This document shows positions 1,255 through 41,344 of a stretch of 64,000 nt of DNA, piece by piece. The translations under genes were made by a program, and so were the position numbers. The notes under the pieces were generated by a model, which worked only from the letters and a program-made list of their open reading frames with translations, ran no database searches and was not told the origin of the DNA. The first letter of the stretch is position 1. The number at the start of each line of letters is the position of its first letter. This stretch comes from an uncultured Chromatiales bacterium. GTDB lineage: Bacteria; Pseudomonadota; Gammaproteobacteria; SZUA-140. The stretch is from the NCBI GenBank assembly GCA_964388175.1, contig CAYLYS010000004.1, positions 2,347 through 66,346 of the forward strand, written 5' to 3'.

Positions 1255-1353
1255 CCTGCGCGCGGCTGCCCGCCATGACAGCGAAGCGGACGGCGCTGCG
1301 TGCCCTTTCCATGCTTTTCTAGTATCTTGCTAGCTTCTCTTTTGCAGAGCCTC

Positions 1354-2331: not shown

Positions 2332-3212
2332 GCGCCGCGCGGCGCGATGCGCCGCTGATCGGCGACGAGGAACTCGAACGCCTGCGTCTGCTCGCCCTGC
2401 AATACCGCGCGCGCCGCCATGCCGTGGGCGCCGTGGCCGGCGGCCGCCCCGGCCGGCGCCGCGGCGCCGGCATGGACCTGCACGACACCCGCCCCTACCA
2501 AGCGGGCGACGATGTCCGCCACCTGGACTGGCGCGCCACCGCGCGCAGCGGCAAACCCCTTACCAAGGTATTCATCGCCGAACACAGTCACGATATCTGC
2601 CTGCTCATCGACCGCCGGCCCGGCATGCTGTTCGGCACCCGGCATGAACTCAAGGCAACGACGGCGGCGCGCCTGGCCGCGACGCTCGCTTTCCACACTC
2701 TCGCCGACCATGGCGCCGTATCGGGGCTGGTGCTTGCCGGCGGTGCGCGCTATTTTCCGCCGCGCAAGACAGCGGCCGGCGTATTGCCGCTGCTGCGCGC
2801 CGCGGTCGCAGCGCCCGGCGATCAGGCCATCGACGGCACCGTAATGCCGACCGCCGCACCGCCCGTAACGCCCGCCCTGCTCTACATCATCAGCGATTTT
2901 CGCGATGTCATTCAGAGCGCAGCCACCGTGGCGGACTATGTGCCCGCCGGGCAGCGCGCCGCGGTAGCCGTGCGTATCGTCGATGAAGCGGAGCAGCGCC
3001 TGCCGGCAGCGGGCATCCTGCGGCTGGTAGCGCCCGAAGGCGGCGCCCCGATCGAGGTCGACACGCGCGATCCGGAACTGCGCCGGCGCTATCAGGCGCT
3101 TGCCGCGCAGCGCAGCGCCGAACTCGCGCGGCAGTGCGCGTTGCACGGCATCACGCTGCACACCATCACCAATTGCCGTGATCTGCATCCGCAGATCGAA
3201 GCCCTGCTGTAA
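2313..3212 (+). CDS. DUF58-family protein (MoxR-associated, VWA-like)
   Basis: Conserved DUF58 core: YQAGDDVRHLDWRATARSGKPLTKVF. It overlaps the moxR 3' end and continues the operon. Confidence 0.8.
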   Translation: MRTDTLSAARRDAPLIGDEELERLRLLALQYRARRHAVGAVAGGRPGRRRGAGMDLHDTRPYQAGDDVRHLDWRATARSGKPLTKVFIAEHSHDICLLIDRRPGMLFGTRHELKATTAARLAATLAFHTLADHGAVSGLVLAGGARYFPPRKTAAGVLPLLRAAVAAPGDQAIDGTVMPTAAPPVTPALLYIISDFRDVIQSAATVADYVPAGQRAAVAVRIVDEAEQRLPAAGILRLVAPEGGAPIEVDTRDPELRRRYQALAAQRSAELARQCALHGITLHTITNCRDLHPQIEALL

Positions 3213-3703
3213 TGGACGCCGCCGCGCCGATCGAAACCCTGGCCGCCCTGGCCGACATCGAGATCCCGGCGCCGCCCGCGCCGGCGACACCGCTGCTGGC
3301 GCTGAGTGTGCTCATTCTGATACTGGCAGCAGCGGCGCTATGGCTGCTGCTCAGCCGCCGACGCAAGCCACCGCAAACACCGACACCTCATCCATCGACA
3401 CTGGCCGACGAAGCGCTGCGACGCCTGGATGCGCTGCATGAGGAGTGGCGCGCGGGAAAAACGGAAGATCGCGAAACCGCCTACCGCTTGTGCGCGCTGC
3501 TGCGCATCGGCATGACATTGCACAGACTCGATCCGGCCCTGCCACCAGCGTGCGCGCCGGCGGCGGAATGGTCGGCGTGCCTGCATGCGCTGCGCCGGCC
3601 ACGCTATAGCGCGCACGGCGGCGCCATCGATGCGGCGGTCTTCGAATCGATACGGCACTGGCTGGCGGCGCATCGCACCGGAACGGAAGCCGCCCATGTT
3701 TGA
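3212..3703 (+). CDS. Small membrane protein of the Bat/MoxR operon (DUF4381-like)
   Basis: One hydrophobic helix (LLALSVLILILAAAALWLLL). Its position between the DUF58 and VWA genes is conserved in bat-like operons. TAATG start/stop overlap. Confidence 0.5.
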   Translation: MDAAAPIETLAALADIEIPAPPAPATPLLALSVLILILAAAALWLLLSRRRKPPQTPTPHPSTLADEALRRLDALHEEWRAGKTEDRETAYRLCALLRIGMTLHRLDPALPPACAPAAEWSACLHALRRPRYSAHGGAIDAAVFESIRHWLAAHRTGTEAAHV

Positions 3704-4673
3704 CTTCGGTGCGCCTGCATGGCTGATTCTCCTGCCGCTGCCCGCACTGCTGTGGCGACTGCGCAGCCGGCAGCACAACGAAGGCGCGCTGATCCATCCG
3801 CTGACGCAGCTCATCGGCACGCTGCCGGCCGGCAGACGCAACACGCTGATCTCGCCGCATGCGCTGTGGGTCATCGGCTGCGCACTGCTGATCCTCGCCC
3901 TGGCGCGGCCGCAGTGGCTGGACAACGACGCCGCCAGGCTCGATCCCGGCCACAACATCGTTTTCGCCGTCGACGTATCGGGCTCGATGCGCGCGCTCGA
4001 CTACCTCGACGGCGACCAGCGCATCAGTCGCCTGGACAAGGTCAAACAATCGCTCGAGCGCTTCCTGCGCAACGGCAGCGCGATGCGCGCCGGCATCATC
4101 GTCTTCGCCGACGATGCCGCCACGCTGTTGCCGCTGACCCATGATCTGGCGCTCGCCGCCGAGATGAGCACGGAAATAAACAGCAGCCTGGCCGGCGAGC
4201 GCACCGCCATCGGCAACGCCATCGCGCTCGCCGTGCAGCGACTGGAACACACGCCGGGCGAGGCGCGCATCCTGGTGCTGCTCAGCGACGGCACCGATAC
4301 CGCCGGCACCATCCGCCCGGCCGACGCCGCCGAACTGGCGCGGGCGCATGATGTGCGCATCTACACCGTTGCCTTCGGCAGCACCGGCAGAGTACCGTTT
4401 CCGCTCGGCAACGGCGAAGTGATCTACCGCGAACTGCCGCCGGACAGCGCGCTGCTCGAAGCACTGGCGCAGCACACCGGCGGGGTTCACTTCAGCGTGC
4501 GCGAAGCAAGCGATATGGACGCCATCCTGGAGCAGATACATGCGCTGGAAAAAACCCGCATTCCCGCACCCGCGCCGGCATGGCAATGGTACTGGCTGCC
4601 GGCGCTGCTCGGACTGCTCTGCGTGCTGCATGCCGAATACCGCCGCCAGCGGGAAATGACGAACGCACGATGA
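3696..4673 (+). CDS. VWA-domain protein BatA-like (membrane anchored)
   Basis: N-terminal TM segment, then a VWA MIDAS motif (VFAVDVSGSM ... LLSDGTDT). Internal ATG at 3696 in frame with ORF 3585..4673. Confidence 0.75.
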   Translation: MFDFGAPAWLILLPLPALLWRLRSRQHNEGALIHPLTQLIGTLPAGRRNTLISPHALWVIGCALLILALARPQWLDNDAARLDPGHNIVFAVDVSGSMRALDYLDGDQRISRLDKVKQSLERFLRNGSAMRAGIIVFADDAATLLPLTHDLALAAEMSTEINSSLAGERTAIGNAIALAVQRLEHTPGEARILVLLSDGTDTAGTIRPADAAELARAHDVRIYTVAFGSTGRVPFPLGNGEVIYRELPPDSALLEALAQHTGGVHFSVREASDMDAILEQIHALEKTRIPAPAPAWQWYWLPALLGLLCVLHAEYRRQREMTNAR

Positions 4674-6439
4674 ACGCGCCCTGGTCGATCGCCCTGCAAT
4701 ATCCCGCCGGCCTGCTGCTGCTGCCGCTCTGCGGTGCGGTATTCCTGCTCCTGCGCCGCATCCGCCCCTGGACCGCTTTTGCCGAAGCACGCCTGCTGCC
4801 CTGGTTGATACCCCGGCTGATACCCCGACGGATACCGGGAGCAGCGCATGACGGCAGCCGCCGACTGATCGTTACCGCCTGGCTGCTGATCGCCGTTGCC
4901 GTCAGCGGCCCCTATCTGACCGCCGGTGGTGAAAAACCGGCGCGTCCCGCGCTCGATATCGCATTGGTGATGGATATCTCGCCCTCGATGACGGCGAACG
5001 ATCTCGCTCCCGATCGCCTGCAGCGCGCCCGCCTGGAAGCCTACGATCTGCTGCACCGGCTGGGCGGCAACCGTGTCGCCCTCATCGCCTATTCCGGCTA
5101 CGCTTACCGCGTCCTGCCGCTGACCCATGATCTCCCGCTGGTACGCGGCCATATCGAAGCGCTCGATCCGACGCTGACGCGACACCATGGCAGCAACCTG
5201 GTACAGGCGCTCGAATTCGCCGCGCAGGCGTTGACGGCATCCGCCGACGGCGGACGCGCCATCATCCTGTTGAGCGATGGCGAAAGCACGGACGGCGCCG
5301 AAGTCATGGCAACGGCCGAACGGTTCACGGCCCGCGGCATTCCGGTATTCGCACTCGGTGTGGGTACGACGGCAGGAGCGCCCGTGTCCGCCGGCAGCGG
5401 TCATATCCGCCGGCCCGACGGCAGTCCGGTCGTCTCGCGCCTCGACCGTGCGCTGCTGACCGCGATCGCCGCGCGCAGCGGCGGGCGGTATGCCGACGTA
5501 CGATCGGACGACGCCGACAGCGCGCACCTGCTCGCCGGCATCGCACGCTTGACGCCGCAGCATCCGGGACCGGCCACGCCCGCCGGCTATCCGCTCCATC
5601 CCTGGCTGCTCGCCGCCGCGCTCGTTCTCCTGCTGCTCGGCGGCCGGCGCTACCGTCCGCCTTCACGCACACTGGCTTCAGCGCTGGTGTTCGCCATTAC
5701 CTTCGCCGGCGCCGGCCTTCCCGACACCGCCTTCGCCGCCGGCTGGGAAGAGCGTGCCGCCCACCGCGCGCTGCAGGACGGCGACTATGACCGCGCCGCC
5801 ACCCTGTACGAAAGCATCGGCGGATACACCGGCCACATGGGCGCGGGCGCCGCCGCCTACCGGCGCGGCGCGTGGATGGAAGCGCGCGCCCTGTATCAAA
5901 CGGCATCCGCGCTTGCCAACGACGACACCGAACGCGCACTCGCCTACTACAACGAGGCGAACGCGCTTGCCCGCATGGGCCAGGTGCGCAAGGCCATCGC
6001 GCGGCTGGACGCTGCGCTGGCCTTGCATCCGAATCATGTCCGCGCCGCGCTCAACCGCGACCTGCTGCAGCGCGCGCTGGAACGCAAGGAAGCGCGTATC
6101 GGGGAAGAAACGATACTGCCGCGCATCGACGACGGCGTCGCCGACAGTGGCGCTGCCGGGTCGATCGACACCACTGCGGCGTCGGCCAGCCACAGCCGTG
6201 GGGAAGCCGGCGCCACGCCCGACCCCAGCGATCGCCCTGCGCTACCGGAAACGGCGTCGGCCATCCTCGCTGCCGATGCCGAAGAGACGCCGGCGCGCGC
6301 GATGCCGCTGCGTACAGCCGGCGACACCGCCGCGCTTGCCGCCGGCACGCTGCGTGACGATCCGCGCGAGGTGCTGCGCCATCGCTTCATGGTCATGGAT
6401 GCGAACCGCGTCCGCCTGCCGGAGCCGCAGACATGGTGA
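4670..6439 (+). CDS. VWA-domain protein fused to C-terminal TPR repeats (BatB/BatC-like)
   Basis: VWA motif DIALVMDISPSM ... LLSDGESTDG. The C-terminus has TPR-like repeats (YRRGAWMEARALYQTA ... YYNEANALARMGQVRKAIARLDAAL). ATGA overlap with the previous gene. Confidence 0.75.
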   Translation: MNAPWSIALQYPAGLLLLPLCGAVFLLLRRIRPWTAFAEARLLPWLIPRLIPRRIPGAAHDGSRRLIVTAWLLIAVAVSGPYLTAGGEKPARPALDIALVMDISPSMTANDLAPDRLQRARLEAYDLLHRLGGNRVALIAYSGYAYRVLPLTHDLPLVRGHIEALDPTLTRHHGSNLVQALEFAAQALTASADGGRAIILLSDGESTDGAEVMATAERFTARGIPVFALGVGTTAGAPVSAGSGHIRRPDGSPVVSRLDRALLTAIAARSGGRYADVRSDDADSAHLLAGIARLTPQHPGPATPAGYPLHPWLLAAALVLLLLGGRRYRPPSRTLASALVFAITFAGAGLPDTAFAAGWEERAAHRALQDGDYDRAATLYESIGGYTGHMGAGAAAYRRGAWMEARALYQTASALANDDTERALAYYNEANALARMGQVRKAIARLDAALALHPNHVRAALNRDLLQRALERKEARIGEETILPRIDDGVADSGAAGSIDTTAASASHSRGEAGATPDPSDRPALPETASAILAADAEETPARAMPLRTAGDTAALAAGTLRDDPREVLRHRFMVMDANRVRLPEPQTW

Positions 6440-8100
6440 GCCGGCGCCTGCCGGCATTCGTCCTGCTGCTGCTCACACTCAGCGGCGGCACGGCCTTCGC
6501 CGCCGAGTTCATCGCCGAGGTGGACAGAAAGGAACTCTACGTCAACGAACACGTGTTGCTCACGCTGTCGCTGAGCGACAGCGACACACGGCTGCGCGCC
6601 GAGGGCGTATCGCCCAACATCGACCTGACCGTGCTCAGCGATGATTTCGATCTGGGCACGCCGCAAGCCGATTTCCGCTTCAACATCGATCGCGGCCGGG
6701 GCCGATCGACTTCCAGCATCACCCTCGCGCTCTTTCCGCGCACGCCGGGGCGCGCGCGCATCCCGAGCTTCAGCGCGGACGGCGCCAGCACCGCGCCGAT
6801 CGAACTGCGCGTGCTGCCGCTGCCGGCCGACTCCACGCCGGAAGTATTCGCCCGCAGCGGCATTCTGCGCGATCGGCTCTACGTCGGTGAACAGACCCTG
6901 CTTTACCTGGATCTGTATCACCGCGTGGACATCGCCAGCGCCCGCTTCGGCGGCGCGCTCGATTCGCGTCCGCGCCTCGCGATCGAAGCGCATGCGCTGC
7001 CGGTCGAAGAACGCAGCGAAAACGTTTCCGGCATCAGCTATCGGGTGACCCGCAGCGCCTGGGCGGTCAGTCCGGTGAGCGGCGAAGATGTGACACTGCT
7101 GCTGCCGGACATCTGGATCGAAACCCGGCAGGGCCGCCAGTGGCGATTGCCCTTCAGCGAGGAACGCATCGACGTGCGTCCGCTCGCCGATGACGCACAG
7201 ACCCGGCCTGCCGCGATCGGGAAACCGCAGATCGAAATGCGCGCGCCCGAGACGATCGTCGTCGGTGAGGCCACGCCATGGGAGTTCGTCCTGCGCAGCC
7301 ATACCGCACTCAATGCGCTGCCGTCGAGCGCGCCGTTGCATGCCGCAGCGGACGGCCTGCGGGTATACATGGATCCGCCGCTCAAGCGCCTGGAAACAGT
7401 GGCCGGCGCGGCGGATGGCGCAGTGAACGATGCGGTCGAAAGCACGGTCGTCTACCGCGGATTTCTGCTCGCCGACGCCGCCGGCGACTATCTCACGCCG
7501 ACCATCAGCCTGCCCTACTACGACACGGCCAGCGACCGCGTCGAAATCCTGGAGGTCGCGGGCAGCGCTTTGCGGGCGCTGCCCGCGCCGACGCTTGCCG
7601 GCAACGCCATGGCGCTTCCCGCGGCGGAATCAGCGCCACCCGGCGCAGAGGTGCGCGGCGCCCACGGCATCTGGCCTTGGCTGACGGCAACGCTGGCGCT
7701 GCTGTGGGTTGCCACGCTCGGGGGATGGTTATGGCAAAGCGGTATCGTGCGCGCCAGGCACGCCGTGGTGAAACCGCGCGCCGCGGCGACCGGCAGTGAC
7801 GGCGACCCACTGCAGCGACTGCTCGCCGCGCTCGACGCGCGCACGCTGGAACAGGGACTGCGCAATTGGCTCACGGCATACGGGCCGGACGACGCCGTCG
7901 AAAATGCGGTGCGCGCGGTACAGCGCCGGCGCTATCATCCGCATCGCGCGGATGCAAACGGCGACGATGATGTAAATAAAGCGGTGGCTGAAGCGCTACG
8001 CTGCCTGGACGGCAGAATCGTACGGGCGGAAACGCCTGTTCCATCACGCGATATCTGGTCCCCCGCCGCCTTCCATCCCGGCAGGACACGGGCGCCTTAG
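6433..8100 (+). CDS. BatD-like (oxygen-tolerance) protein with signal peptide and C-terminal TM
   Basis: 555 aa. Signal peptide LLLLTLSGGTAFA, a long extracytoplasmic domain and a C-terminal hydrophobic helix (WPWLTATLALLWVATLGGWLW). Terminal position in the MoxR-VWA operon. Confidence 0.65.
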   Translation: MVSRRLPAFVLLLLTLSGGTAFAAEFIAEVDRKELYVNEHVLLTLSLSDSDTRLRAEGVSPNIDLTVLSDDFDLGTPQADFRFNIDRGRGRSTSSITLALFPRTPGRARIPSFSADGASTAPIELRVLPLPADSTPEVFARSGILRDRLYVGEQTLLYLDLYHRVDIASARFGGALDSRPRLAIEAHALPVEERSENVSGISYRVTRSAWAVSPVSGEDVTLLLPDIWIETRQGRQWRLPFSEERIDVRPLADDAQTRPAAIGKPQIEMRAPETIVVGEATPWEFVLRSHTALNALPSSAPLHAAADGLRVYMDPPLKRLETVAGAADGAVNDAVESTVVYRGFLLADAAGDYLTPTISLPYYDTASDRVEILEVAGSALRALPAPTLAGNAMALPAAESAPPGAEVRGAHGIWPWLTATLALLWVATLGGWLWQSGIVRARHAVVKPRAAATGSDGDPLQRLLAALDARTLEQGLRNWLTAYGPDDAVENAVRAVQRRRYHPHRADANGDDDVNKAVAEALRCLDGRIVRAETPVPSRDIWSPAAFHPGRTRAP

Positions 8101-8142
8101 CGACGCCCGGATAGATATTCCGGTATAGATCCCGGGATACGC

Positions 8143-8844
8143 TTAAGGACCCGCCAGTTCCCGCTCGACGAGCGCATCGACCGTTTGCAACAGGCTTTCG
8201 ACGTTGGCAGCCATGCTGGCGTCGACGCGATACCGGCCATTGACGATGAAACTCGGCGCGCCGGCGAGCTCATAGCGACGGCTGACGGTCTGCGCATTGC
8301 GCACCTTCGCGCTCACCGCGCTGCTGCGGAAAACGCTGAGGAAGCGCGTCCGGTCCACGCCATGCTCGGCGAAGAAAGCGGCAAGCTCTTCTTCCCTGTC
8401 CAGTGCGCGGCCGTGACGATGCAGCGCATTGTACAAAGGCATGTGTATGCGATCGAGAACGCCCAGCGCCTCGGCGGCAAAGAAAGCGCGTGCGTAATAA
8501 ACCATGTGACTGCCGATCACCGCCGGCAGACGCCGGAAAGTGACGTTCTCTTGCCGGCTGTTTATCCAGCGCTCGAGCGCCGGCTCCACCATGAAGCAGG
8601 TCTGGCAGTCATACCAGAGGAACTCGATGACCTCTACCGTTCCGGATGCGGCTTCCACGCTCTGCGGCTCGGCCAGTTCCTTGTAACTGGTGCCGGGAAT
8701 CAAACCCTGCCCGCCCTGCGCCCAGGCGCCGCCACAACACCACAGCGTGAGCAGCAGCGCAGCGGCACACAGGCGCGCGGACACCCGTCCGGACATCCTC
8801 GACCGTTCCATCACCGCGCTCATCCCGCTCACTACTGGCTGCAT
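8143..8844 (-). CDS. DsbA-family thiol:disulfide oxidoreductase (true start probably an internal Met around 8796)
   Basis: Thioredoxin-fold CxxC active site (WYDCQTCF) in a periplasmic protein of about 210 aa with signal peptide LCAAALLLTLWCCGGAWA. Same strand as and immediately downstream of ccsA and the TPR gene. Confidence 0.7.
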   Translation of the reverse strand: MQPVVSGMSAVMERSRMSGRVSARLCAAALLLTLWCCGGAWAQGGQGLIPGTSYKELAEPQSVEAASGTVEVIEFLWYDCQTCFMVEPALERWINSRQENVTFRRLPAVIGSHMVYYARAFFAAEALGVLDRIHMPLYNALHRHGRALDREEELAAFFAEHGVDRTRFLSVFRSSAVSAKVRNAQTVSRRYELAGAPSFIVNGRYRVDASMAANVESLLQTVDALVERELAGP

Positions 8845-8854
8845 CGCCGGCTCC

Positions 8855-9613
8855 TCATCGGCCTATGGGTATGGTCAGATCCCGCGCCGCCGAAGCACTA
8901 CCTGGAGCAGCGACCGGCGCATCACGATCCGGCAGATTGCGGTCCACCCATTCACGGGTTCTTTCTTCTATCCACTGACGCTCGTGCTCCGGCAAGGGGC
9001 CGCGCGCGATCCGCACATCCCACTCCCACAGCGCCGAGCGCGCCTGACGCACGAAAGGATCGTCCTCTGGCGCGAGATGGATATAAGTGCGCATCGCACC
9101 CAGGGCGCCTTCCAGATCCTCGAGCGCTTCCAGCGCCACCGCCAATCCCCAATAGGCATTGCCCTGAAAAGGCTGCAGTTCGGTGGCGGCGAGGAAGAAA
9201 TCGCGCGCCGTGTCGTAACGCTCGAGTCCGAGCAGCGCATAGCCGAGATTGACATAGGCCTCCGGCAGACGCGGAGAGAGCGCGATGACGCGCTCGAGCG
9301 CGACGATGGCTTCCTCGTACCGGCGCGCGTGCAGCATGACCACGGCCTGCTCGAAACGCTGCTCGATCTCGGCCATGCGCGGATCGACCGGCGCCTGGCG
9401 CGATGTCTCTTGCCGCGCCGGCTGCTGCGGCTGCACCGCGGAAGCCGCCGCGACGACACGTGACGGCGATTGTCCGGGAAGATGCGCATTGAGCAGCAGC
9501 GATTTCAGATCGGGCCGCATCGCCAGCATGAAGATGGTGCACAGGATGATGCCGACGATGCTGAGCGACAGCGCCGATATCGCCGATTCATGCGGGTGCC
9601 GGCGCACGCTCAT
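8855..9613 (-). CDS. Membrane-anchored TPR-repeat protein
   Basis: N-terminal TM helix (ISALSLSIVGIILCTIFMLA), then TPR-like repeats (YEEAIVALERVIALSPRLPEAYVNLGYALLGLERYDTARDFF ... GNAYWGLAVAL). ATGA overlap with the ccsA stop. Confidence 0.6.
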   Translation of the reverse strand: MSVRRHPHESAISALSLSIVGIILCTIFMLAMRPDLKSLLLNAHLPGQSPSRVVAAASAVQPQQPARQETSRQAPVDPRMAEIEQRFEQAVVMLHARRYEEAIVALERVIALSPRLPEAYVNLGYALLGLERYDTARDFFLAATELQPFQGNAYWGLAVALEALEDLEGALGAMRTYIHLAPEDDPFVRQARSALWEWDVRIARGPLPEHERQWIEERTREWVDRNLPDRDAPVAAPGSASAARDLTIPIGR

Positions 9614-10470
9614 ATCACGCCCTTGTGCGCCGCTTCGCTGTAGAACGGCGTACCGAAATAGGTGAAGAAGGCGAAAGCGAACACGCCGATGATGGTCGCC
9701 GCGCCCACGCGCGGCGCAATGTTATAGGTGAAGCGCACGTGGATGGCGAGACCGAGCAGCAGCCAGTTGAGAAACGACGAGGTTTCGAGCGCATCCCAGG
9801 CCCAGTAGCGTCCCCAGGCATCCTGGGCCCAGACCGCGCCGGCGATCAGCATCAGGCTTTCGAAAACCAGCGCCAGCAGCATGAAGCGCCAGGCCACGGT
9901 ATCGAGTACGTCGTCGCCGGGCATGTGGCGGAAGAGATAGCGGAAACCTACCACGTCGCGCAACAGAATGATGCCGGCAAGACCGGTGCCGATGAGGCAA
10001 AAAGCGAGGAAGAATTTGCCGAAAATGACGTGCGCCCATTTCCAGTCGTGATAATAGGTCGGCGGGAAGGGGCTGGCGGCGGGATCGACCGTCACCACCC
10101 AGGCGCTCATGACCAGCAGGATCGGCAACACCACGACGGCTGTCGGCCTGATCAGGGGAATGCGCCAATAGACCACGGTGTATACCAGCCCGAGACTGAA
10201 CAGCTGGCTGATGAGCAGTTCGAACAGATCGACGAAAGGTCCGTGCCCCACCCGCAGCCAGCGCTCCGTCAGGGCGATCGTCAGCAGAATGACCGCCGCG
10301 GCGAGCAGCGTGAGCACATAGGTTTCCGGACGCCGGGAAAGCACGGCAGCGGTGCTGGTACGTCCTCCCGCGCGCAGTACGCCATGGGCGGCCAGCGCCA
10401 TTGCCAGCGCATAGCTGGCTATGCCCGCATACAGCCATGGCAGTTCCGACACCATGGTTTCCGTGTTCAT
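9610..10470 (-). CDS. ccsA: Cytochrome c-type biogenesis protein CcsA/ResC (System II heme-handling, WWD domain)
   Basis: Tryptophan-rich WWD motif WGRYWAWDALE and polytopic membrane topology. Start at MNTETMVSEL (ATG 10470, with GAGAGGA upstream). ATGA overlap with the resB stop. Confidence 0.85.
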   Translation of the reverse strand: MNTETMVSELPWLYAGIASYALAMALAAHGVLRAGGRTSTAAVLSRRPETYVLTLLAAAVILLTIALTERWLRVGHGPFVDLFELLISQLFSLGLVYTVVYWRIPLIRPTAVVVLPILLVMSAWVVTVDPAASPFPPTYYHDWKWAHVIFGKFFLAFCLIGTGLAGIILLRDVVGFRYLFRHMPGDDVLDTVAWRFMLLALVFESLMLIAGAVWAQDAWGRYWAWDALETSSFLNWLLLGLAIHVRFTYNIAPRVGAATIIGVFAFAFFTYFGTPFYSEAAHKGVI

Positions 10471-11498
10471 AGCGTTTTTCCTCTCGCCACATCGGATGCC
10501 GCATGCTTGCGGTCGGCCTCGCGGGCAATGGCATAGGTATGAACGGTGCCGAACTTGCGCCAGAAATGCGCGGCGAGCCCGAATACCGTGATGAACGCGA
10601 CGATGAACAGCCACTGCAAGGTCGGATCATAATACAACTTATAGCCCATCCAGCTCGACAGACGCTCATAACGCAGAAAACCGTCATCGAGCCGGATCGA
10701 TTGCCCCTGCGCCAGCTCCACGCGCTCATCTCCTGCGCGCACCACCAGCATGCCGCGCGCGTTCGCCGGCTCCAGGCGCCAGTCGGTCTGCGGATCCATG
10801 CCCGTTTCCAGTTGCAGCCAGAAGCGGATTTCCTGATCTCCCGGCCCCGGCACCCAGCGGTTCGCCTGGCGATGCTCGAACAGCGGATACGAGGGCATGT
10901 GAATGGCGCCGGTGACGGGCACGCCGGCGTCCGGCGTCCAGGTCAGGATGGCGGCAAAACCTTTGTTGAACGTGGTATAGAAGCGATAGCCGTCGAGCAC
11001 CAGCGGCGTATGGTCGCCGATCACCCGATGCTCCCAACCACCGCGGCCATCGGCAACGGCAATCTGGCTGCGCGTCGCGCCGCGCACCATGCCCGTGGAG
11101 TAATCGATGGCATACGGCCCCTGCAGGAAGTGCACGCGCTCGAAGTTGCCGCGGTGCCAGAGCCCCGTGCGGACATCGATCATGTCATCCGGTGAAAATG
11201 CCTGGCCTTCGGCGAGTTCGACGTTGGCTTCGAGGTAGGTCAGCCGGCCGATCGCAACGAGAACGGCGATGGCCAGCAGGCCGATATGGAACACCAGCAG
11301 GCCGCCGCGGCGGTTGATGCGCGGATCGGTGATGATGGCAGCGCACAGATTGATGGACAGCACGGTCAGCGGCGCAACCAACACCCAGACCGGCGTATCG
11401 ACAGGGTTGTCGTAGTTCAGCGCCGCACCCAAGCCGAGGAACACCATACCGAAAACGGTCAGACGCGTCGACGCGAGTTTGCGCAGAGCGCCACTCAT
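10467..11498 (-). CDS. resB: Cytochrome c biogenesis protein ResB/CcsB (System II)
   Basis: About 343 aa. N-terminal TM helices, a large periplasmic domain and a C-terminal TM, as in ResB. Start MSGALRKL at 11498 overlaps the undecaheme stop. Directly upstream of ccsA. Confidence 0.75.
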   Translation of the reverse strand: MSGALRKLASTRLTVFGMVFLGLGAALNYDNPVDTPVWVLVAPLTVLSINLCAAIITDPRINRRGGLLVFHIGLLAIAVLVAIGRLTYLEANVELAEGQAFSPDDMIDVRTGLWHRGNFERVHFLQGPYAIDYSTGMVRGATRSQIAVADGRGGWEHRVIGDHTPLVLDGYRFYTTFNKGFAAILTWTPDAGVPVTGAIHMPSYPLFEHRQANRWVPGPGDQEIRFWLQLETGMDPQTDWRLEPANARGMLVVRAGDERVELAQGQSIRLDDGFLRYERLSSWMGYKLYYDPTLQWLFIVAFITVFGLAAHFWRKFGTVHTYAIAREADRKHAASDVARGKTL

Positions 11499-14251
11499 GG
11501 CAGGTTCACGCAGGCCTCGTTGCTGTTGTTCATCCAATCGACGCCGACGATGGCGTTGCCGGGCGGGCCGGCCGAACCGCAGTTGACGTCCAGCCACTCG
11601 CCGCTGCGGGCGAAGCTGCGGATCTTCAGCGCGGAACCGAGATAGTAAGGCCCCTGATAATAGCGCCCGGTGCCGGACGACGCGAAACCGCTGTAGCGCA
11701 CCTGGGTACCCGGCGGCAGCTCGGCTTCCAGGCCGACGTCGTTGAGGTTGGCGAGGAAGGTCTTGTTCTTCCAGCCGTGCGGAATGGCGATGTGGCAATA
11801 GGTGCAGCGGAAATTCTGCACCACGAAGGCATGGCCCACATGCAGATTGACGCCGAGGAACTGCAGGCAGCCGCCACCTCCCACCGCGCGGCGGAATCCA
11901 CTCAACACCACGTCCGGATTGGGCGACAGCACGCCACGCGCATAGTTCTTGGGATCATGGCAGCGGAAGCACAGGTGATTGGCCGAATCCTCCTCAGTAG
12001 GACGCAAAGTGTTTGTTCCAGTCTGATCGTTCCAGTTGCCCTTGAGCAGGAAATTCTCGTCCGAACCGTGCGGTCCCCAGGGGAAACCATGCTCCCCACC
12101 CTCTGGCACCACGGTGTCACCCCGCGTACGTGAACCATGGCAGTCCGTGCAATACATGGTCTGCGTACCGACCGCCGTATTGAAGGGCGGACGCCAGGCA
12201 TTGCCGTCCGCGCCGCGCACCGCCGGCGTCCGTCCGGTCGGCTGCAGCGTGGGATGCCATGAGCGATGGTTGTTGGTGACGTAGTCGACCAGATTGCCCT
12301 GCGGATCGAGGCGCGAGAACGTCACCACGCCCTGGCCGCCGGAATCGGTCACCGTCGCCGGCACCGGCGCCTGTGCGCCGATATAGGCGCCGGTCGGCGT
12401 TCCCGGCGTGACCTCGCCCTGATGATCGCGCGGCGACTGGAACTCCATGCCCTGGTTGGTGTAATTGAACAGGGAGTTGGTGCCCGCCGGCGTCAGCCCG
12501 GAGGTATATCCCAGCGGCGGCGGAATATCGTAGGCGTAATTCGAGTGGCACTTCATGCACAGCTGATACTCGCGCGTCAGATACGGCGCGCTGACATCGG
12601 TGCTGCCGCCGACACCGGGATCGCCACGCTTGACCTGGAAATCGACCGGAATGCTGCCGAAGGCGGTATTGGCGTAGACCGGCTCGACGCCCCAGATGCC
12701 GCGCAGCACGCCCGAGGCGAGATTGCTCGGCGGAATGCCCGGCGTATGCTCGTGCGTCGGACCCGGATCGGGCACCGTCGGATCGGCGTTGAACAGACGG
12801 GTGCGCTGCACGCGATGCGGATTGTGGCAGTCGGTGCATTCGGCATGACGATTGGCGAGACCGCCGAGGCCGAGCAGTTCGCGCGACTCGATGAAATCCT
12901 GGCCGCGCTGCATGCCCTGCGTCGCGTCGTCGCCGGTGCCGATGTTGTGTACCTCACCCCCCGACAGTTGATCGGTGTTCGAGATCGGCATGTGCCGCGC
13001 CATGGTGGTGAAGTCAGTCTTGATGTCCGGAACTTCGAAGGCCGGATTGCTATTCGGACTGTTCTGTCCCTGCAGCGTCTGCGCGGTCGGCGGCCCGACG
13101 GCAGGATCGCCATGGCAGGCATAGCACACGTTTTCGATCGAGGGGTTGCCGCCCTGGCGGGCGCCGGTGACCGGATCGAGAGGGCCGTCGGTGCCTTCGC
13201 GCAGGATGCGCCGCGAACCCTGTACCGTGTGCGGATCGTGGCAGTTCAGACAGGCCGCCTGCCACACGCGCGTGCCGCGCGGGAATTCGCGCAGATCGGC
13301 GGCCTCGTTCGTATAACGCTCATCCGCCACCGCCGGATTGGCGTGCGCCGAACCGGCCCAGCCTTCCTTGTCGTGGCAGGCGAGGCAGATGATGTCGCGC
13401 TGCGCATCGAACTGTCCCTGCACCGGCGGCTGCTGCTGGAAGCGGTTCACGCGCAGGAACTTGATGTTCTCGCCCGGTACCTGCGAACGCAGATGGGGAT
13501 CGTGGCAGGTGATGCACTCCACCTTGGGACCGACGCCGTCGGCATCGCGTTCGAGCGGCAGATACTGGCCGCGCGGCAGCGGCTGGCGCGCTTCTCCGTC
13601 GATACGGCGCACGCGCTCATCCAGCCATGGCACCGAATTGGGATCGAACAGCTCGCCGTCACGCGCCGCCTGGGCGCTGTCGTAGGTGAAGGAGATCGGA
13701 TGGTCGTTGCTGAGATCGACGCCGAGATGACGGGTGAAGCCGGTCGTCACGCCGTGTCCCTGCGGTATCGTTCCCGGCGGTGAGCTGTCGCCGGCAGGGA
13801 AGGTGAACGGTACCGTGCGACCATCGCGGTTGGGCTGATCGCGATTGAGCACGTTGACCGCGCCGAGGGCAATAGTGCCGTCGTGGCACGACAGACACAG
13901 CTTGGACCGGCCCGTGGGCTGGCCGAGGTCGGTGGCGTCGATGGAACTCGATGAATACGGAATATAGGCCGTCTGCCGCAACTCGCGGTTCCACAGCGGC
14001 GCGTTCTGCGCGGGCGTCGCGCCGTGCGGCGTGTGGCAGAACACGCAGATCTGCGACTCTTCCGTGGCGAAGGCGCGGCGTTCGGTGCCGTCGGGGAGCG
14101 TGATACCAGCGGGCGGAACCGTGGCGGAGAAATTGTGCCGGGTGTTGGCGATGTCGGAGATCGGGGCCGCCGCCGACGCCCACATCGTCCACAGCGCGGC
14201 ACCGATACAGATGGCGGCGCCGGCGACAAAGGTAGACCAGCGACGCATCAC
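11495..14251 (-). CDS. Undecaheme c-type cytochrome, 918 aa, secreted
   Basis: Signal peptide and 11 CxxCH motifs, several in the form CxxCH(D/N)PH: CVFCH, CLSCH, CITCH, CLACH, CLNCH, CYACH, CTDCH, CMKCH, CTDCH, CFRCH, CTYCH. The N-terminal about 90 aa are homologous to the tetraheme protein at 22706..23545. Confidence 0.85.
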   Translation of the reverse strand: MMRRWSTFVAGAAICIGAALWTMWASAAAPISDIANTRHNFSATVPPAGITLPDGTERRAFATEESQICVFCHTPHGATPAQNAPLWNRELRQTAYIPYSSSSIDATDLGQPTGRSKLCLSCHDGTIALGAVNVLNRDQPNRDGRTVPFTFPAGDSSPPGTIPQGHGVTTGFTRHLGVDLSNDHPISFTYDSAQAARDGELFDPNSVPWLDERVRRIDGEARQPLPRGQYLPLERDADGVGPKVECITCHDPHLRSQVPGENIKFLRVNRFQQQPPVQGQFDAQRDIICLACHDKEGWAGSAHANPAVADERYTNEAADLREFPRGTRVWQAACLNCHDPHTVQGSRRILREGTDGPLDPVTGARQGGNPSIENVCYACHGDPAVGPPTAQTLQGQNSPNSNPAFEVPDIKTDFTTMARHMPISNTDQLSGGEVHNIGTGDDATQGMQRGQDFIESRELLGLGGLANRHAECTDCHNPHRVQRTRLFNADPTVPDPGPTHEHTPGIPPSNLASGVLRGIWGVEPVYANTAFGSIPVDFQVKRGDPGVGGSTDVSAPYLTREYQLCMKCHSNYAYDIPPPLGYTSGLTPAGTNSLFNYTNQGMEFQSPRDHQGEVTPGTPTGAYIGAQAPVPATVTDSGGQGVVTFSRLDPQGNLVDYVTNNHRSWHPTLQPTGRTPAVRGADGNAWRPPFNTAVGTQTMYCTDCHGSRTRGDTVVPEGGEHGFPWGPHGSDENFLLKGNWNDQTGTNTLRPTEEDSANHLCFRCHDPKNYARGVLSPNPDVVLSGFRRAVGGGGCLQFLGVNLHVGHAFVVQNFRCTYCHIAIPHGWKNKTFLANLNDVGLEAELPPGTQVRYSGFASSGTGRYYQGPYYLGSALKIRSFARSGEWLDVNCGSAGPPGNAIVGVDWMNNSNEACVNLP

Positions 14252-15312
14252 GCCTCACCCAGGAGTTGGAATATCATGATACGACCGTTGAAAGCATCAG
14301 CGACGTAGATCCGGTCACGGTGATCCGTCCAGACCCCGGCGGGCAGATAGAACTCTCCGATGCCACTGCCGGAACCTCCGATGGCCAGCAGCAGCTCCCC
14401 TCCATCGTTGAATACTAACAGATGGTCATAATAGGATTCCACCACATAGACATTGCCGTGAGAATCCACCGCAACGCCTTTGGGCCGCGGCATATCGCCG
14501 ACGAAAAGGCCACGCCGGCCGAATTCGCGCACGAATTTTCCGTCGGCATCGAAAATCTGCACTCTCGCATTCAGTGTATCGGTGACGATGAGGCGATCGT
14601 CGACGTAGGTGAGATACGTCGGCGCATTGAATTCACCCGCGCCTTCGCCGTGCGCACCGATGCGTCCGAGCAGCTCGCCGGCATCGCTGAAAATCTTGAC
14701 GTCGTGCGCCTGTGCATCGGCGACGAAGATCCGTCCGCGCGCCGCGTCGCGCACCACGCCGACCGGACGCTCCACTTGGCCGAGACCGATGCTGCCGCGC
14801 GGTTCGCCATCAGCACCGAGGCGCACGATCACCTTCAGATCCGCATCGGCGACCAGGATCTCGCCGTTGGCGCCGGGCGCGATGCCGACCGGCGTCATGA
14901 AACGCACCATCGGCCCGGCCGCCTGCCACAGCAACAGCTTGCCCTGTGCTTCGTCGAAAACGAAAATCGCCCCCCGGCTGACGTCGGTGACGAAGATGCG
15001 TCCGTCCTCGCCGACGAAACCGTTCTGCGGCCGCTGCAGGATCATCGGCGTATGCTTGGAACTGCCCAGCCCGACGACCCAGCTCAGCAAACGGCTGCCG
15101 ATACTGCTCACCTTGGACGAAGAAAAATTCTCCTCACCGGTGAGCTGACCGACCAGCGCATAGCGGGCCGTATCCGGCGCCTGGGGCCAGCGGAAACGCT
15201 CGTCTCCGGCGTATTCATACTGCAGCGTGGCGGGTCCGCTGGCGCATCCGGCCATGAACAGACACAGGAACAGAACGAACGGCAGTCCCGCGCGTGCCTG
15301 ACGCACGCTCAT
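14248..15312 (-). CDS. NHL-repeat (six-bladed beta-propeller) lipoprotein
   Basis: Lipobox FMAGC and six NHL-like repeats (e.g. GRIFVADAQAHDVKIF, DRLIVTDTLNARVQIFD, GNVYVVESYYDHLLVF, DRIYVADAFNGRIMIF). ATGA overlaps on both sides. Confidence 0.8.
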   Translation of the reverse strand: MSVRQARAGLPFVLFLCLFMAGCASGPATLQYEYAGDERFRWPQAPDTARYALVGQLTGEENFSSSKVSSIGSRLLSWVVGLGSSKHTPMILQRPQNGFVGEDGRIFVTDVSRGAIFVFDEAQGKLLLWQAAGPMVRFMTPVGIAPGANGEILVADADLKVIVRLGADGEPRGSIGLGQVERPVGVVRDAARGRIFVADAQAHDVKIFSDAGELLGRIGAHGEGAGEFNAPTYLTYVDDRLIVTDTLNARVQIFDADGKFVREFGRRGLFVGDMPRPKGVAVDSHGNVYVVESYYDHLLVFNDGGELLLAIGGSGSGIGEFYLPAGVWTDHRDRIYVADAFNGRIMIFQLLGEA

Positions 15313-16361
15313 CGCACCGCCGGCTCCGCGTCGACAGGCGCCGCCCCCGGCCAGGACGCCAGTGTCAGAATCTGAATGCGGCGGTTCAGGCTGTCGGCGA
15401 CATAGAGGAATCCTTCGTCCAGCCACAGGTCGGTGATGCGGCGGAAGCGGCCCGGCGCCGAACCGTGCCCACCGATGACGCCGATCAATTGGCTGCCCTG
15501 ATAGACCTTGATGTCGTCGCTGAGATAATCCGCGACGAAGGCGCGCTGCTGATGATCGACGACGATCGCCGTGGGGAAGGTAACGGTATCCTGTTGGAAC
15601 GATTCCCGGTACGCGCCATCCGGGCCCATGACCTGGACCCGCGCCGGACCATAGCGGGTGGCGATGTAATAGCCTGCCGGCCCTTGCGCCAGCGCGGTGA
15701 TGCCGAGAAAACGTCCCGCCCCCGCGCCACGCACGCCGATCGCACCCGACAGCAGTCCGGCAGGGTTGTACACCAGCACGTCATCGTTGAAACCATCGGC
15801 GATGAATACATAACCGGTATCGTCGTTGACCACCACGTTCATCGGACGACCGATGTTGATGCGGTCCTCGATGGTTCTGAGCAGGCGGCCATCGGCATCG
15901 AAATGCAAAACCCGGGCGCCGTCGGTATCGGCGAGGTAGAACGACAGATCGCGGTTGAGATGGATATCGGCGGCGTTGCCATGCAGAACGCCCTTGAGAT
16001 CGAGGACCATGCTCAGGCGGTCGAGGCGCCTGTCATATCTGAACAACTGCTGGTGACCGGCATCGACGATGTAGACCAGATGGCCTTTCGCCGCCACCGC
16101 CACGGGTTGCAGCAGCTGCGTGGAGATCGGCCCCGTCAGCATCTGCCATTCTCCGCTGCCGCTGGGCGCGCTGTCGAGCACCTGCCAAAGCTCGCCCGGC
16201 CCGGTCTGCGCCATGGTTTGCGGCGCCGGAGGCGCCGACGGCGGGGCGAAACGGGCAACATCCTCGCGCGTCAAGGCACAGGCCTGCAGCAGCAGGGCGA
16301 GCGCGGCGAAGATCAGCGCAGCAGGGTAACGTCTTGGGGTACGGAATGACATCTGCCGCAA
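15309..16361 (-). CDS. NHL-repeat beta-propeller lipoprotein (second copy)
   Basis: Lipobox LLQAC and NHL-like repeats (GHLVYIVDAGHQQLFRYD, LSFYLADTDGARVLHFD, GYVFIADGFNDDVLVY, GFLYVADSLNRRIQIL). The start (16361 or 16352) overlaps the 3' end of the upstream triheme gene by about 40-50 nt. Confidence 0.75.
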   Translation of the reverse strand: MRQMSFRTPRRYPAALIFAALALLLQACALTREDVARFAPPSAPPAPQTMAQTGPGELWQVLDSAPSGSGEWQMLTGPISTQLLQPVAVAAKGHLVYIVDAGHQQLFRYDRRLDRLSMVLDLKGVLHGNAADIHLNRDLSFYLADTDGARVLHFDADGRLLRTIEDRINIGRPMNVVVNDDTGYVFIADGFNDDVLVYNPAGLLSGAIGVRGAGAGRFLGITALAQGPAGYYIATRYGPARVQVMGPDGAYRESFQQDTVTFPTAIVVDHQQRAFVADYLSDDIKVYQGSQLIGVIGGHGSAPGRFRRITDLWLDEGFLYVADSLNRRIQILTLASWPGAAPVDAEPAVR

Positions 16362-16924
16362 TTCAGCGTGGGAGAGAATGCGACCTTACCATGACAAACG
16401 CCACAGAAGTCGCCCTGGATGATCGCCGACATGGAAACCGGATTGGCGCCGGCTTGCGGAATGAAGATCGCAGGATGGCAATTGGCGCATGTCAGCCACT
16501 CCGTATGCTGCAGATGGGGAAACCGCACCCACGGCATGGACTGCGTATTCCTGAAAATGATATCGAAATCGACCGGGAACATGTCCATGCTGCCGTCGAG
16601 CGAGGTGCGCGGCTCGATCAGCCTGCGCTCCAATGTCTTCACCCAGTCGATCTGCCCGGAACCATCGCGCGGGAAACCGGCCATGGCCTCATACGGCTGC
16701 TGCAGAACGGCAACCGCTTCGCCGCTGGGATCATGGATGCCGTCCTCCGCGACCGGAGCGATATCGCCGCGCATCTGGAAATGGGCGCCGCGCGACCACA
16801 ATGGCGCATCCTGCTCCTGTTGCGGGAATACGCTGCCCGCGGCACCCGCTGCCGCACTGACCGTCAAGGCCGCACATAGCGCCAGCAGACGCCACGCGCT
16901 CAGCGGATGCCCTCTTTTCATCAT
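16313..16924 (-). CDS. Triheme c-type cytochrome (c7/c3-like), periplasmic, copy A
   Basis: Signal peptide, then FPHLQHTEWLTCANCH, CGVCHGK and CGRCHS: three CxxCH motifs with distal His ligands in c7-like spacing. Paralogous to 18614..19264. Confidence 0.8.
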   Translation of the reverse strand: MMKRGHPLSAWRLLALCAALTVSAAAGAAGSVFPQQEQDAPLWSRGAHFQMRGDIAPVAEDGIHDPSGEAVAVLQQPYEAMAGFPRDGSGQIDWVKTLERRLIEPRTSLDGSMDMFPVDFDIIFRNTQSMPWVRFPHLQHTEWLTCANCHPAIFIPQAGANPVSMSAIIQGDFCGVCHGKVAFSPTLNCGRCHSVPQDVTLLR

Positions 16925-18507: not shown

Positions 18508-18560
18508 TCCTCCCTCATATACTCTGGCATACATTCGGGCACACACTCAGACAGACATCC

Positions 18561-18596
18561 GGCGGAGACAGAAGGCCCGCCCTGAACGGGCGGGCC
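18561..18596 (-). terminator. GC-rich hairpin (GGCCCGCCC-TGAAC-GGGCGGGCC) followed on the transcript by a U-rich tract (UUCUGUCUCC); candidate intrinsic terminator or attenuator
   Basis: Perfect 9-bp stem read at 18574-18596, 18 nt downstream of the triheme B stop codon and upstream of the cupredoxin gene RBS. Confidence 0.4.
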
Positions 18597-18613
18597 TGAC
18601 TACCAAAACAATT

Positions 18614-19264: not shown

Positions 19265-19287
19265 GGCTCACTCTCTCCCGTCCGTCA

Positions 19288-19737: not shown

Positions 19738-19814
19738 AACAAACCCCTCCTACTTGCTTTCCAACCTTTATTTTTTATGCAGACACAGGCCTGGCCGGGC
19801 GAGCGAATCCGGGC

Positions 19815-21578: not shown

Positions 21579-21626
21579 GAATTGCGTATCCCACGTCGGC
21601 CGCCCCGCGGCCTATTCAAGTTGTTA

Positions 21627-41341: not shown

Positions 41342-41344
41342 GAC

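Follow-up and report, generated by a model that had tools for sequence, protein, structure and literature searches.

Relationship to described cytochrome maturation systems

The locus analyzed here has its closest described counterpart in the "uet" (undecaheme electron transfer) cluster of Tenderia-like bacteria, which are uncultured and occur on cathodes and in sediments and groundwater. In the published cluster, System I comes after uetABCDEFGHIJ-ccsAB-nrfG-batABD (Eddie et al., 2022; bioRxiv 10.1101/2022.05.06.490989). Its authors named the undecahaem cytochrome UetJ, described it as highly expressed, counted ccsAB and the nrfG-like TPR gene among the conserved parts of the cluster, listed the bat genes within the conserved block, and proposed that the System II encoded there besides System I matures the Uet cytochromes (Eddie et al., 2022). 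On cathodes, the trihaem Uet genes show some of the highest expression levels of all Tenderia genes, and for electroautotrophic Tenderia-like bacteria the cluster is the foremost candidate for taking up electrons from outside the cell.

Dedicated System II lyases are known from Wolinella succinogenes, in which NrfI and CcsA1 serve particular cytochromes and nrfI lies in the nrfHAIJ operon. In System I, the TPR proteins NrfG and CcmI bind apocytochromes. To our knowledge, no TPR component has been described for System II.

The region studied here is the uet cluster already published for Tenderia-like bacteria. It has the same genes in the same order as that of Candidatus Tenderia electrophaga from uetA to the TPR gene, followed by a Bat/MoxR operon and ccmA, and the role proposed for its maturation genes, in maturing the Uet cytochromes, is also the same. 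It differs in belonging to another lineage, represented by an uncultured, Chromatiales-like bacterium, and in carrying, like 26 other species-level loci, a DsbA-like (CQTC) gene between the TPR gene and batD that Tenderia lacks. This unusual DsbA-type gene is the only new element relative to the published cluster, the description of which contains no occurrence of "dsba" or "disulfide" in its main text (Eddie et al., 2022). As the central idea has been published, the finding alone opens no new question.

Organization of the uet locus

We analyzed a window of 64,000 nucleotides, in which uet genes were called by Pfam and NCBIfam matches, haem motif counts, and gene order. All lie on the minus strand: uetA (22706-23545, tetrahaem), uetB (21627-22709, PpiC/SurA-like), uetC (19815-21578, outer-membrane barrel), uetD (19288-19737, trihaem), uetE (18614-19264, trihaem), uetF (16921-18546), uetG (16313-16924, trihaem c7), uetH (15309-16361) and uetI (14248-15426), both encoding NHL proteins, and the undecahaem cytochrome gene uetJ (11495-14251). 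This order matches the published cluster and three other loci (L001, L003, and the Tenderia-like L165). The 918-residue UetJ contains exactly 11 CXXCH motifs, with no CXXCK or CXnCH variants, and each motif is kept in 65–67 of 67 orthologues; three more cysteines (C795, C891, and C914) are also conserved. The haem motifs of UetA, UetD, UetE, UetG, and UetJ are all canonical CXXCH, none being unusual. The window also encodes a QrcA/ActA-like multihaem cytochrome at 46001-46663.

Four genes follow uetJ on the same strand: a resB/ccsB-like gene (10467-11498, 343 aa, Pfam ResB PF05140), a ccsA/resC-like gene (9610-10470, 286 aa, PF01578), a membrane-anchored TPR gene (8855-9613, 252 aa, generic TPR Pfam matches), and a DsbA-like gene (8143-8844, 233 aa, PF01323). 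Direct reading of the sequence bore out the set uetJ-resB-ccsA-TPR-dsbA and the three gene overlaps described in an earlier note on this DNA. The cytochrome/resB (CCATGAGT), resB/ccsA (CTATGAAC), and ccsA/TPR (ATATGAGC) junctions are each ATGA start/stop overlaps of 4 nt, and 10 nt separate the TPR stop codon from the dsbA ATG. That note's reading of the genes as a System II (ResB/CcsA) module joined to the cytochrome operon is supported, the module sharing an operon with the undecahaem gene.

Conserved linkage of the System II module with uetJ

ResB, CcsA, and the TPR protein are always encoded together in the approximately 90 related loci surveyed. Among the 71 loci that are informative for the upstream side, uetJ lies directly upstream of the module in 57, and 67 contain uet genes; in two to four loci, the stretch upstream of the module lacks uet genes. 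The overlaps are kept in many relatives, namely in 50 of 66 loci for cytochrome/resB, 47 of 86 for resB/ccsA, and 50 of 85 for ccsA/TPR. We consider it probable that the module serves as the maturation section at the end of the uet operon and provides a divergent, catalytically intact System II synthase for the Uet cytochromes. The resB and ccsA genes would share a transcript with uetJ, probably with translational coupling, such that production of the synthase would coincide in time and place with that of the 24-haem Uet cytochrome set, and System I (ccm) would stay the general pathway.

A different reading of the same adjacency is that it reflects co-regulation, with the module acting as a general second synthase for all c-type cytochromes of these autotrophs, which are rich in cytochromes, that provides extra capacity or serves under particular haem or oxygen conditions. 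The canonical CXXCH motifs of the Uet cytochromes are compatible with this reading, as are the 15 distant loci in which the module adjoins the ccm operon to form one biogenesis block and the presence in the window of other multihaem proteins such as the QrcA/ActA-like cytochrome. Such a generalist role would, however, leave the tight and conserved linkage to uetJ, with its 4-nt overlaps, less well accounted for, and the invariant TPR partner suggests recognition of particular clients; we regard this alternative as unlikely.

The preferred reading, a synthase for the Uet cytochromes, finds a precedent in W. succinogenes, where an extra synthase gene is likewise linked to a particular cytochrome and exists besides a general synthase. 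There are two differences. NrfI serves the CXXCK motif of NrfA and CcsA1 the CX15CH motif of MccA, whereas the Uet cytochromes have only CXXCH, so that, unlike for NrfI and CcsA1, a special lyase is not obviously required. In addition, the part of the general pathway falls here to System I rather than to another CcsBA.

Sequence features of the CcsA-like and ResB-like subunits

The CcsA-like protein matches PF01578 with 60.3 bits (cut-off 29.9) and NCBIfam TIGR03144 with 103.6 bits, below the equivalog cut-off of 187.6. Profile alignment with the CcsBA structure 7S9Y from Helicobacter hepaticus places H147 on H761 (P-His1), H244 on H858 (TM-His2), and H282 on H897 (P-His2), while the motif WAQDAWGRYWAWDALETS falls on the WWD domain. 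The WWD motif and these three histidines are at least 95% conserved in 87 sequences and invariant in a 24-sequence alignment (A1). The best species-level match to the CcsA of the window is 79% identical. Hence the protein shares with H. hepaticus CcsBA (7S9Y/7S9Z) the WWD motif, P-His1, P-His2, and TM-His2.

The ResB-like protein is more divergent. It matches PF05140 with 38.9 bits (cut-off 24.6), and only partially, residues 63-176 corresponding to profile positions 150-263 of 486; an NCBIfam search gave no match. All of its best 120 homologues carry a precomputed PF05140 assignment, and it is 59% identical to Tel_16550 of Candidatus Tenderia electrophaga, an orthologue that adjoins the undecahaem gene Tel_16545. 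H71, located in a predicted transmembrane helix, and H115 are invariant among 83 sequences. The AF2 model (pLDDT 87.7) contains four predicted transmembrane helices and a beta-rich periplasmic domain. With Foldseek, its top match in the PDB was CcsBA 7S9Y (E = 9.4e-6), with a TM-score of only 0.29, and the sequence profile had no match among PDB sequences. At 343 residues, the protein is approximately 100–200 residues shorter than textbook ResB.

The two-subunit ResB plus CcsA arrangement is as in canonical System II, and the invariant H71 of ResB, in its predicted transmembrane helix, is a candidate counterpart of TM-His1 (H77) of CcsBA. Divergence from canonical members is nevertheless large, with identities of approximately 13% for the ResB model (Foldseek) and at most about 30% for CcsA (tblastn), and the shortened ResB and the obligatory TPR partner are further differences. 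Unlike the Bacillus subtilis system, in which ResBC goes with ResA and CcdA, the module has a DsbA-derived protein instead; no ResA/CcsX-type thioredoxin and no CcdA/DsbD was found in the module or the annotated part of the window. At the level of annotation, the module encodes CcsB and CcsA as separate, compact subunits that always go with a TPR protein.

In the mechanism that we propose, the two proteins jointly make up a System II holocytochrome c synthase that is divergent yet catalytically intact. The transmembrane histidine pair of ResB H71 and CcsA H244 would be the entry point for haem, which would then be held at a periplasmic WWD site between CcsA H147 and H282, where it would be ligated to CXXCH. 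The sub-equivalog CcsA score, the lack of a PDB sequence match for the ResB profile, the ResB TM-score of 0.29, the generic TPR similarity, and the few loci lacking upstream uet genes count against a dedicated synthase. The CcsA score, together with the short ResB that matches only part of its Pfam model, could also mean that ResB and CcsA are a degenerating remnant or have taken on another task, such as haem export for a purpose other than cytochrome c ligation. We find this very improbable, given that the catalytic histidines and WWD motif are kept over more than 80 species-level genomes at 45–84% overall identity, that the reading frames are intact, and that the operon structure is conserved.

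The TPR protein as a candidate apocytochrome receptor

The TPR protein has a basic N-terminus, a single hydrophobic, putatively transmembrane segment at residues 12-30 according to its hydropathy profile, and TPR repeats at approximately residues 83-190 that are predicted to be periplasmic. Its gene lies 3' of ccsA in every locus with sequence at that position. No match was obtained to the CcmH/CycH TPR family PF23914, to which the CcmI of a relative (L084) scores 69.7 bits, and its best 60 matches in the PDB comprise consensus TPR proteins, OGT, MamA, and others, NrfG not being among those. The earlier note had proposed an accessory holdase; since the TPR protein is an invariant partner of ResB-CcsA, a role as chaperone or holdase is a reasonable guess.

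The most likely function of this single-pass protein would be that of an apocytochrome receptor or holdase, by comparison with CcmI and NrfG. It resembles these System I chaperones in being a periplasm-facing TPR module, here by prediction, that is genetically tied to a haem lyase. It differs from them in having generic TPR matches only, with no specific similarity, and in accompanying a System II synthase. For heterologous expression of the Uet cytochromes, the annotation suggests resB-ccsA-TPR as a minimal co-expression set, with DsbA or a thioredoxin as an optional addition.

A variable DsbA-like or thioredoxin-like gene downstream of the TPR gene

The DsbA-like protein has a signal peptide and matches PF01323 with 56.4 bits. 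It aligns over residues 49-231 with Pseudomonas aeruginosa DsbA (2MBT; phmmer E = 7e-36), such that the DsbA fold with its inserted helical domain is matched over its full length. Its active site reads WYDCQTCF, compared to WYGCPHC in canonical DsbA, and it therefore lacks the CPHC motif that the neighbouring canonical DsbAs carry. Scores against the NCBIfam DsbA equivalogs are far below threshold (59 versus a cut-off of 290). All homologues with at least 47% identity have C(Q/E/R)(T/S)C, and canonical CPHC appears only below 43% identity; within the subfamily, CKTC, CRNC, and CESC each occur in single further members.

The earlier note had listed this gene along with the module. It does follow the TPR gene in the window, but it is not a fixed component. 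In the 73 loci with sequence beyond the TPR gene, the next gene encodes a C(Q/E/R)TC DsbA paralogue in 27 (window included) and a ResA/TlpA-like thioredoxin, a WC(A/P)PC lipoprotein, in 15, all of them distant; no such gene follows in the remaining 31, Tenderia included. Orthologues of the DsbA-like protein were found directly 3' of the TPR gene in these 27 loci and in two further contexts. As DsbA is missing from most lineages and the extra cysteines of UetJ are universal, it is not essential for those cysteines. The DsbA-derived CQTC protein may be a lineage-specific accessory in the thiol-disulfide chemistry of the Uet apoproteins, and would take the slot held by the ResA/TlpA-like thioredoxin in other lineages.

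We tentatively suggest that the uet-linked ResB-CcsA-TPR set constitutes a distinct three-component subtype of System II. The TPR protein would provide client recognition, and the thiol-redox partner could be swapped, the C(Q/E/R)TC protein derived from DsbA standing in, in this lineage, for the ResA/CcsX-type thioredoxin that sister lineages have at this position. Client recognition by a TPR protein is known only from System I (CcmI/NrfG). If this proposal is correct, a DsbA fold has been converted into a cytochrome-specific redox helper, and the natural swap between DsbA and thioredoxin could shed light on the handling of apocytochrome thiols by System II.

Co-occurrence with System I genes and evolutionary origin

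On the far side of the module from uetJ, a MoxR-DUF58-BatA-BatB-BatD operon (1300-8100, plus strand; genes called in the syntenic loci L001, L165, and L166) lies between System II and System I and is convergent with dsbA. Beyond it are ccmA (464-1084, minus strand; NF010061, 246 bits, cut-off 195) and the first 155 codons of ccmB (1-467, minus strand; PF03379, 165.8 bits), which is cut by the window edge. The earlier claim that one genome carries both maturation systems thus holds in the window as far as ccmA and the start of ccmB, and the remaining ccm genes were recovered in relatives. In the closest relative (L085; CcsA 84% and CcmA 80% identical), ccmABCDE and the first part of ccmF precede the end of the contig. 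The full ccmABCDEFGHI set is present in more distant relatives that bear uet genes, and ccmA-I were recovered in L084, L077, and L073.

The same note had raised the horizontal acquisition of the cytochrome cluster together with its own maturase and, as another option, a specialisation of System II for high-flux multihaem substrates, which is a conjecture. System II is unusual in Gammaproteobacteria, and uet clusters have been reported in a few Gallionella and in Leptothrix (Eddie et al., 2022). The GC content of the module equals that of the 35 other genes of the window (0.634 versus 0.641), its GC3 is slightly lower (0.772 versus 0.815), and the codon-usage distance of the four genes (0.81) exceeds those of all 200 random four-gene sets (maximum 0.74), a modest shift that could stem from membrane-protein composition. 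Divergence of CcsA, however, correlates with the divergence of CcmA, MoxR, and BatD, the products of flanking genes (Spearman 0.72–0.83), and the bat and ccm operon neighbourhood is kept from Tenderia to this genome. There was no sign of an integrase, of a boundary flanked by tRNA genes, or of a copy on a plasmid, for which the top match was approximately 30% identical. GC content, divergence, and neighbourhood all argue against a recently acquired genomic island, which we judge improbable; an older acquisition, at the root of the lineage, is conceivable. In the window, the cluster lies among rpsI/rplM, trp, and his genes.

A System II maturation module adjoins the undecahaem cytochrome gene

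Annotation of the window showed that the gene for UetJ, a 918-aa cytochrome with exactly eleven CXXCH motifs (11495-14251, minus strand), is directly followed on the same strand by genes for a 343-aa ResB-like protein (10467-11498; partial match to Pfam PF05140, 38.9 bits), a 286-aa CcsA-like protein (9610-10470; PF01578, 60.3 bits), a 252-aa TPR protein (8855-9613) and, last in the module, a 233-aa DsbA-family protein (8143-8844; PF01323, 56.4 bits). The CcsA-like protein also scores 103.6 bits on NCBIfam TIGR03144, under the equivalog cut-off of 187.6. The cytochrome/resB, resB/ccsA and ccsA/TPR junctions all consist of a 4-nt ATGA start/stop overlap, and 10 nt separate the TPR stop from the dsbA ATG. 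Upstream, on the same strand, the uet genes encode two NHL beta-propeller proteins, three trihaem c7-type cytochromes and one 541-aa protein, and further upstream a 587-aa outer-membrane protein, a PpiC/SurA-like isomerase and a tetrahaem cytochrome. System I is represented by ccmA (464-1084, minus strand; NF010061, 246 bits) and by the first 155 residues of CcmB, which the window start cuts. The module layout claimed in the earlier note is thus confirmed in every detail, from gene identities and overlaps to ccmA and partial ccmB.

A promoter and terminator scan of 7900-24900 gave counts at shuffle level and was uninformative. A GC-rich stem-loop of seven pairs (18575-18591, minus strand) lies within the 67-nt uetE/uetF spacer; it could be an internal attenuator favouring highly expressed trihaem transcripts, with the regional terminator count being at chance level.

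Exactly this arrangement has been named uetABCDEFGHIJ ("undecaheme electron transfer") in Candidatus Tenderia electrophaga, where a ten-gene type-I maturation pathway comes after the uet cluster and System II is described as "not commonly found in Gammaproteobacteria" (Eddie et al., 2022, bioRxiv 10.1101/2022.05.06.490989). The Tenderia undecahaem gene is Tel_16545, and the ResB of the window is 59% identical to Tel_16550. A Tenderia-like contig (L165) has the same order as the window, namely uetC … uetJ, ResB, CcsA, TPR, a convergent BatD…MoxR operon and ccmA. Later work has also noted the uet cluster in some Gallionella. The central interpretation of the earlier note thus re-derives independently a hypothesis already in print: the system has been described before, likewise from bioinformatics alone, and the window contributes a further member, belonging to a sister lineage.

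Linkage to the Uet cytochromes is conserved

More than 1,300 relatives of CcsA are in the database; the top 120 are all at least 60% identical to it, and source-named entries among these 120 are nearly all labelled uncultured Gammaproteobacteria. A scan with one genome per GTDB species located this CcsA clade in 253 species. We fetched the loci of 80 of these, together with metagenome loci, and compared the window proteins with all loci by tblastn. Wherever a locus offered enough sequence, ResB, CcsA and the TPR protein co-occurred. In 71 loci the sequence reached 3 kb or further upstream of resB. UetJ was encoded directly upstream of resB in 57 of these and with another gene between in 7; 3 had other uet genes and no intact UetJ was found, and in 4 no uet gene was found upstream of resB, two of these being contig-edge cases. 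The 4-nt overlaps likewise recur, at uetJ/resB in 50/66, resB/ccsA in 47/86 and ccsA/TPR in 50/85 loci. Since both the linkage to UetJ and the overlaps are conserved across loci, these data support resB-ccsA-TPR being an operonic unit tied to the Uet cytochromes, in which translational coupling is probable.

In some distant relatives, a gene for a ~730-aa lactonase-type 7-bladed beta-propeller lies between UetJ and ResB (L074, 6813-8984; L081, 5332-7563). One CcsA-clade match comes from a contig of 2.7 kb assigned to an "Anaerolineae" bin (L054; WFTO01000176.1). Mis-binning is the probable explanation, rather than presence of the clade in another phylum, since all other titled loci are labelled Gammaproteobacteria, Chromatiales, Chromatiaceae or Tenderia, or in three cases just "Proteobacteria".

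Both maturation systems very likely co-exist

A metagenome scan with CcmA gave the closest relative found, L085 (CcsA 84%, CcmA 80% identity). It shares the resB-ccsA-TPR-dsbA / bat / ccm layout of the window and continues through ccmB, ccmC, ccmD and ccmE to the start of ccmF, inside which its contig ends. Three further loci bearing uet or ccs genes (L084, L077 and L073) contain ccmABCDEFGHI. Given that relatives carry ccm genes beyond ccmA-ccmB, the two systems very likely co-exist in the genome of the window; their co-existence is demonstrated in the relatives only, and the window itself contains ccmA and part of ccmB.

The System II module is separated from the ccm operon by a MoxR-DUF58-BatA-BatB-BatD operon (1300-8100, plus strand), convergent with dsbA and with 43 nt between the facing stops. 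It is absent from this position in 15 distant relatives, ten of which have ccmA within ~1 kb of the module.

Recent horizontal acquisition is not supported

The earlier note had offered horizontal acquisition of the cluster with its own maturase as one option. The GC content of the module matches that of the 35 other window genes (0.634 vs 0.641), and GC3 is slightly lower (0.772 vs 0.815; gene-to-gene SD 0.035). The codon-usage distance of the module (0.81) exceeds that of all 200 random four-gene sets (maximum 0.74), a shift of a size that membrane-protein composition could produce. With GC alike and the codon shift weak, composition is not decisive. Across loci, CcsA identity to the window correlates with that of UetJ (0.73), CcmA (0.72), MoxR (0.83) and BatD (0.81). 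The cluster neighbours rpsI/rplM, trpCDGE, tatBC, hisAHBCDG and murA, and no mobile-element hallmarks or plasmid copies were seen; a plasmid search returned only canonical ccsB genes of ~30% identity or less. GC, the co-varying divergence of flanking genes, the core-gene setting and the absence of mobile hallmarks therefore leave recent acquisition unsupported, and we regard a recent genomic island comprising the Uet cluster and its maturase as improbable. This verdict concerns recent events; an ancient acquisition at the root of the Tenderiales-like clade, beyond the resolution of 20-kb loci, may have taken place.

An Rfam scan of the window detected a single tRNA only (RF00005, 67.5 bits; 26258-26328, minus strand), located between the porin genes and rpsI/rplM with no integrase nearby.

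ResB and CcsA are predicted to form a complete synthase

A 24-sequence CcsA profile aligned to the cryo-EM structure of Helicobacter hepaticus CcsBA (7S9Y; E=2.5e-13), placing H147 on H761 (P-His1), H244 on H858 (TM-His2), H282 on H897 (P-His2) and the motif WAQDAWGRYWAWDALETS on the WWD domain. These three histidines and the motif are conserved at ≥95% in 87 sequences and invariant in the 24-sequence alignment. ResB gave no meaningful match to PDB sequences, whether as a single sequence or as a 23-sequence profile, and a structure model was therefore needed. In the AlphaFold2 model (pLDDT 87.7), four TM helices surround a periplasmic domain rich in beta structure, and the invariant H71 lies within a TM helix. 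The best Foldseek matches of the model in the PDB were CcsBA open (E=9.4e-6), CcmF and CcsBA closed, at low TM-scores of ~0.3, and support for the identity of ResB is weaker than for CcsA. We conclude that the pair is predicted to be a divergent, compact and catalytically complete CcsB/CcsA; a relic or re-purposed pair is a most improbable alternative.

Canonical CXXCH motifs number 21 in UetA, UetE, UetG and UetJ together, and 24 with the trihaem UetD. Searches of UetA, E, G and J for CXXCK and CX3-20CH found none, and unusual haem motifs in these four proteins were rejected as an explanation for a lyase of their own. NrfI and CcsA1, which are dedicated lyases, differ in having clients with non-canonical motifs. 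This contrast favours the main rival explanation, that the module is a non-specific second synthase adding capacity, which we nonetheless consider rather doubtful. The best-supported reading, and in our judgement a reasonably probable one, is that a System II synthase would be made together with the Uet cytochromes, with their 24 haems per set, with help from a TPR receptor in the periplasm and, in the lineage of the window, from a DsbA-derived thiol-disulfide helper, while System I would stay as the general pathway.

The accessory proteins

The TPR protein has a basic N-terminus, one hydrophobic segment (residues 12-30) and then TPR repeats, which by the positive-inside rule would face the periplasm. 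It did not match the CcmH/CycH TPR family, whereas CcmI of a relative did, and its best PDB matches were consensus TPR, OGT and MamA. Because its similarity is generic, filing it as "NrfG" is not supported, and identity with NrfG or NlpI was rejected. Our best guess for its function is reception of apocytochromes, in the manner of NrfG or CcmI.

The DsbA-like protein matches Pseudomonas aeruginosa DsbA with E=7e-36 over residues 49-231, indicating a true DsbA fold, and has the active site WYDCQTCF, compared with the canonical WYGCPHC. In its homologue list every member at least 47% identical has C(Q/E/R)(T/S)C, and canonical CPHC proteins start below 43%. This subfamily occurs directly after TPR in 27 loci and in two further contexts. 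In 15 more distant loci the same slot holds a TlpA/ResA-like lipoprotein with WC(A/P)PC (Pfam AhpC-TSA/Redoxin), followed by ccmA within 1 kb in ten and 2.7 kb in one, with no ccmA match in four; in 31 loci, Tenderia included, it holds nothing, and 13 further loci end at a contig edge. The CQTC protein may oxidise the many cysteines of the apocytochromes or act as their holdase; alternatively, it may be a reductant re-tuned to take the place of ResA. The one unreported detail of the system is this module-specific DsbA paralogue, whose active site is non-canonical and which alternates with a ResA-like thioredoxin; the main text of Eddie et al. (2022) does not describe this alternation, with zero occurrences of "dsba" or "disulfide".

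Beyond its 22 haem-binding cysteines, UetJ has three others, C795, C891 and C914, which lie outside any haem-motif context and are conserved in 65-67 of 67 orthologues. C795, the unpaired one, is upstream of a conserved NlH.gH and may serve as a haem ligand, as an intermolecular link or in some other way; C891 and C914, which could form a disulfide, are within the conserved C-terminal motif nCGSaG.PGN…G..WM….E.C.nlP. As they are conserved irrespective of the presence of DsbA, these cysteines do not explain the DsbA-like gene and were rejected as a sufficient reason for it.

Neighbouring genes

Immediately upstream of uetA, two genes encode porins, one of the Porin_4 family and one an OmpL-like beta-barrel (23671-24777 and 24942-25964, minus strand); they come on top of UetC, the 587-aa barrel encoded within the cluster. 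Adjoining rplM, a gene at 27741-29048 (plus strand) encodes a 435-aa HdrD/GlpC-like protein that combines a 4Fe-4S dicluster domain with two cysteine-rich CCG domains. At a distance of about 15 kb from the uet cluster, a group of genes similar to Alternative Complex III / Qrc (39168-46663, minus strand) encodes a QrcA-like multihaem cytochrome (46001-46663), a QrcB-like molybdopterin-fold subunit (43711-45948), a QrcC-like FeS subunit (42839-43711), a DsrP/NrfD-like membrane subunit (41345-42796) and three smaller ORFs. Its products could plausibly accept electrons from Uet at the inner membrane.
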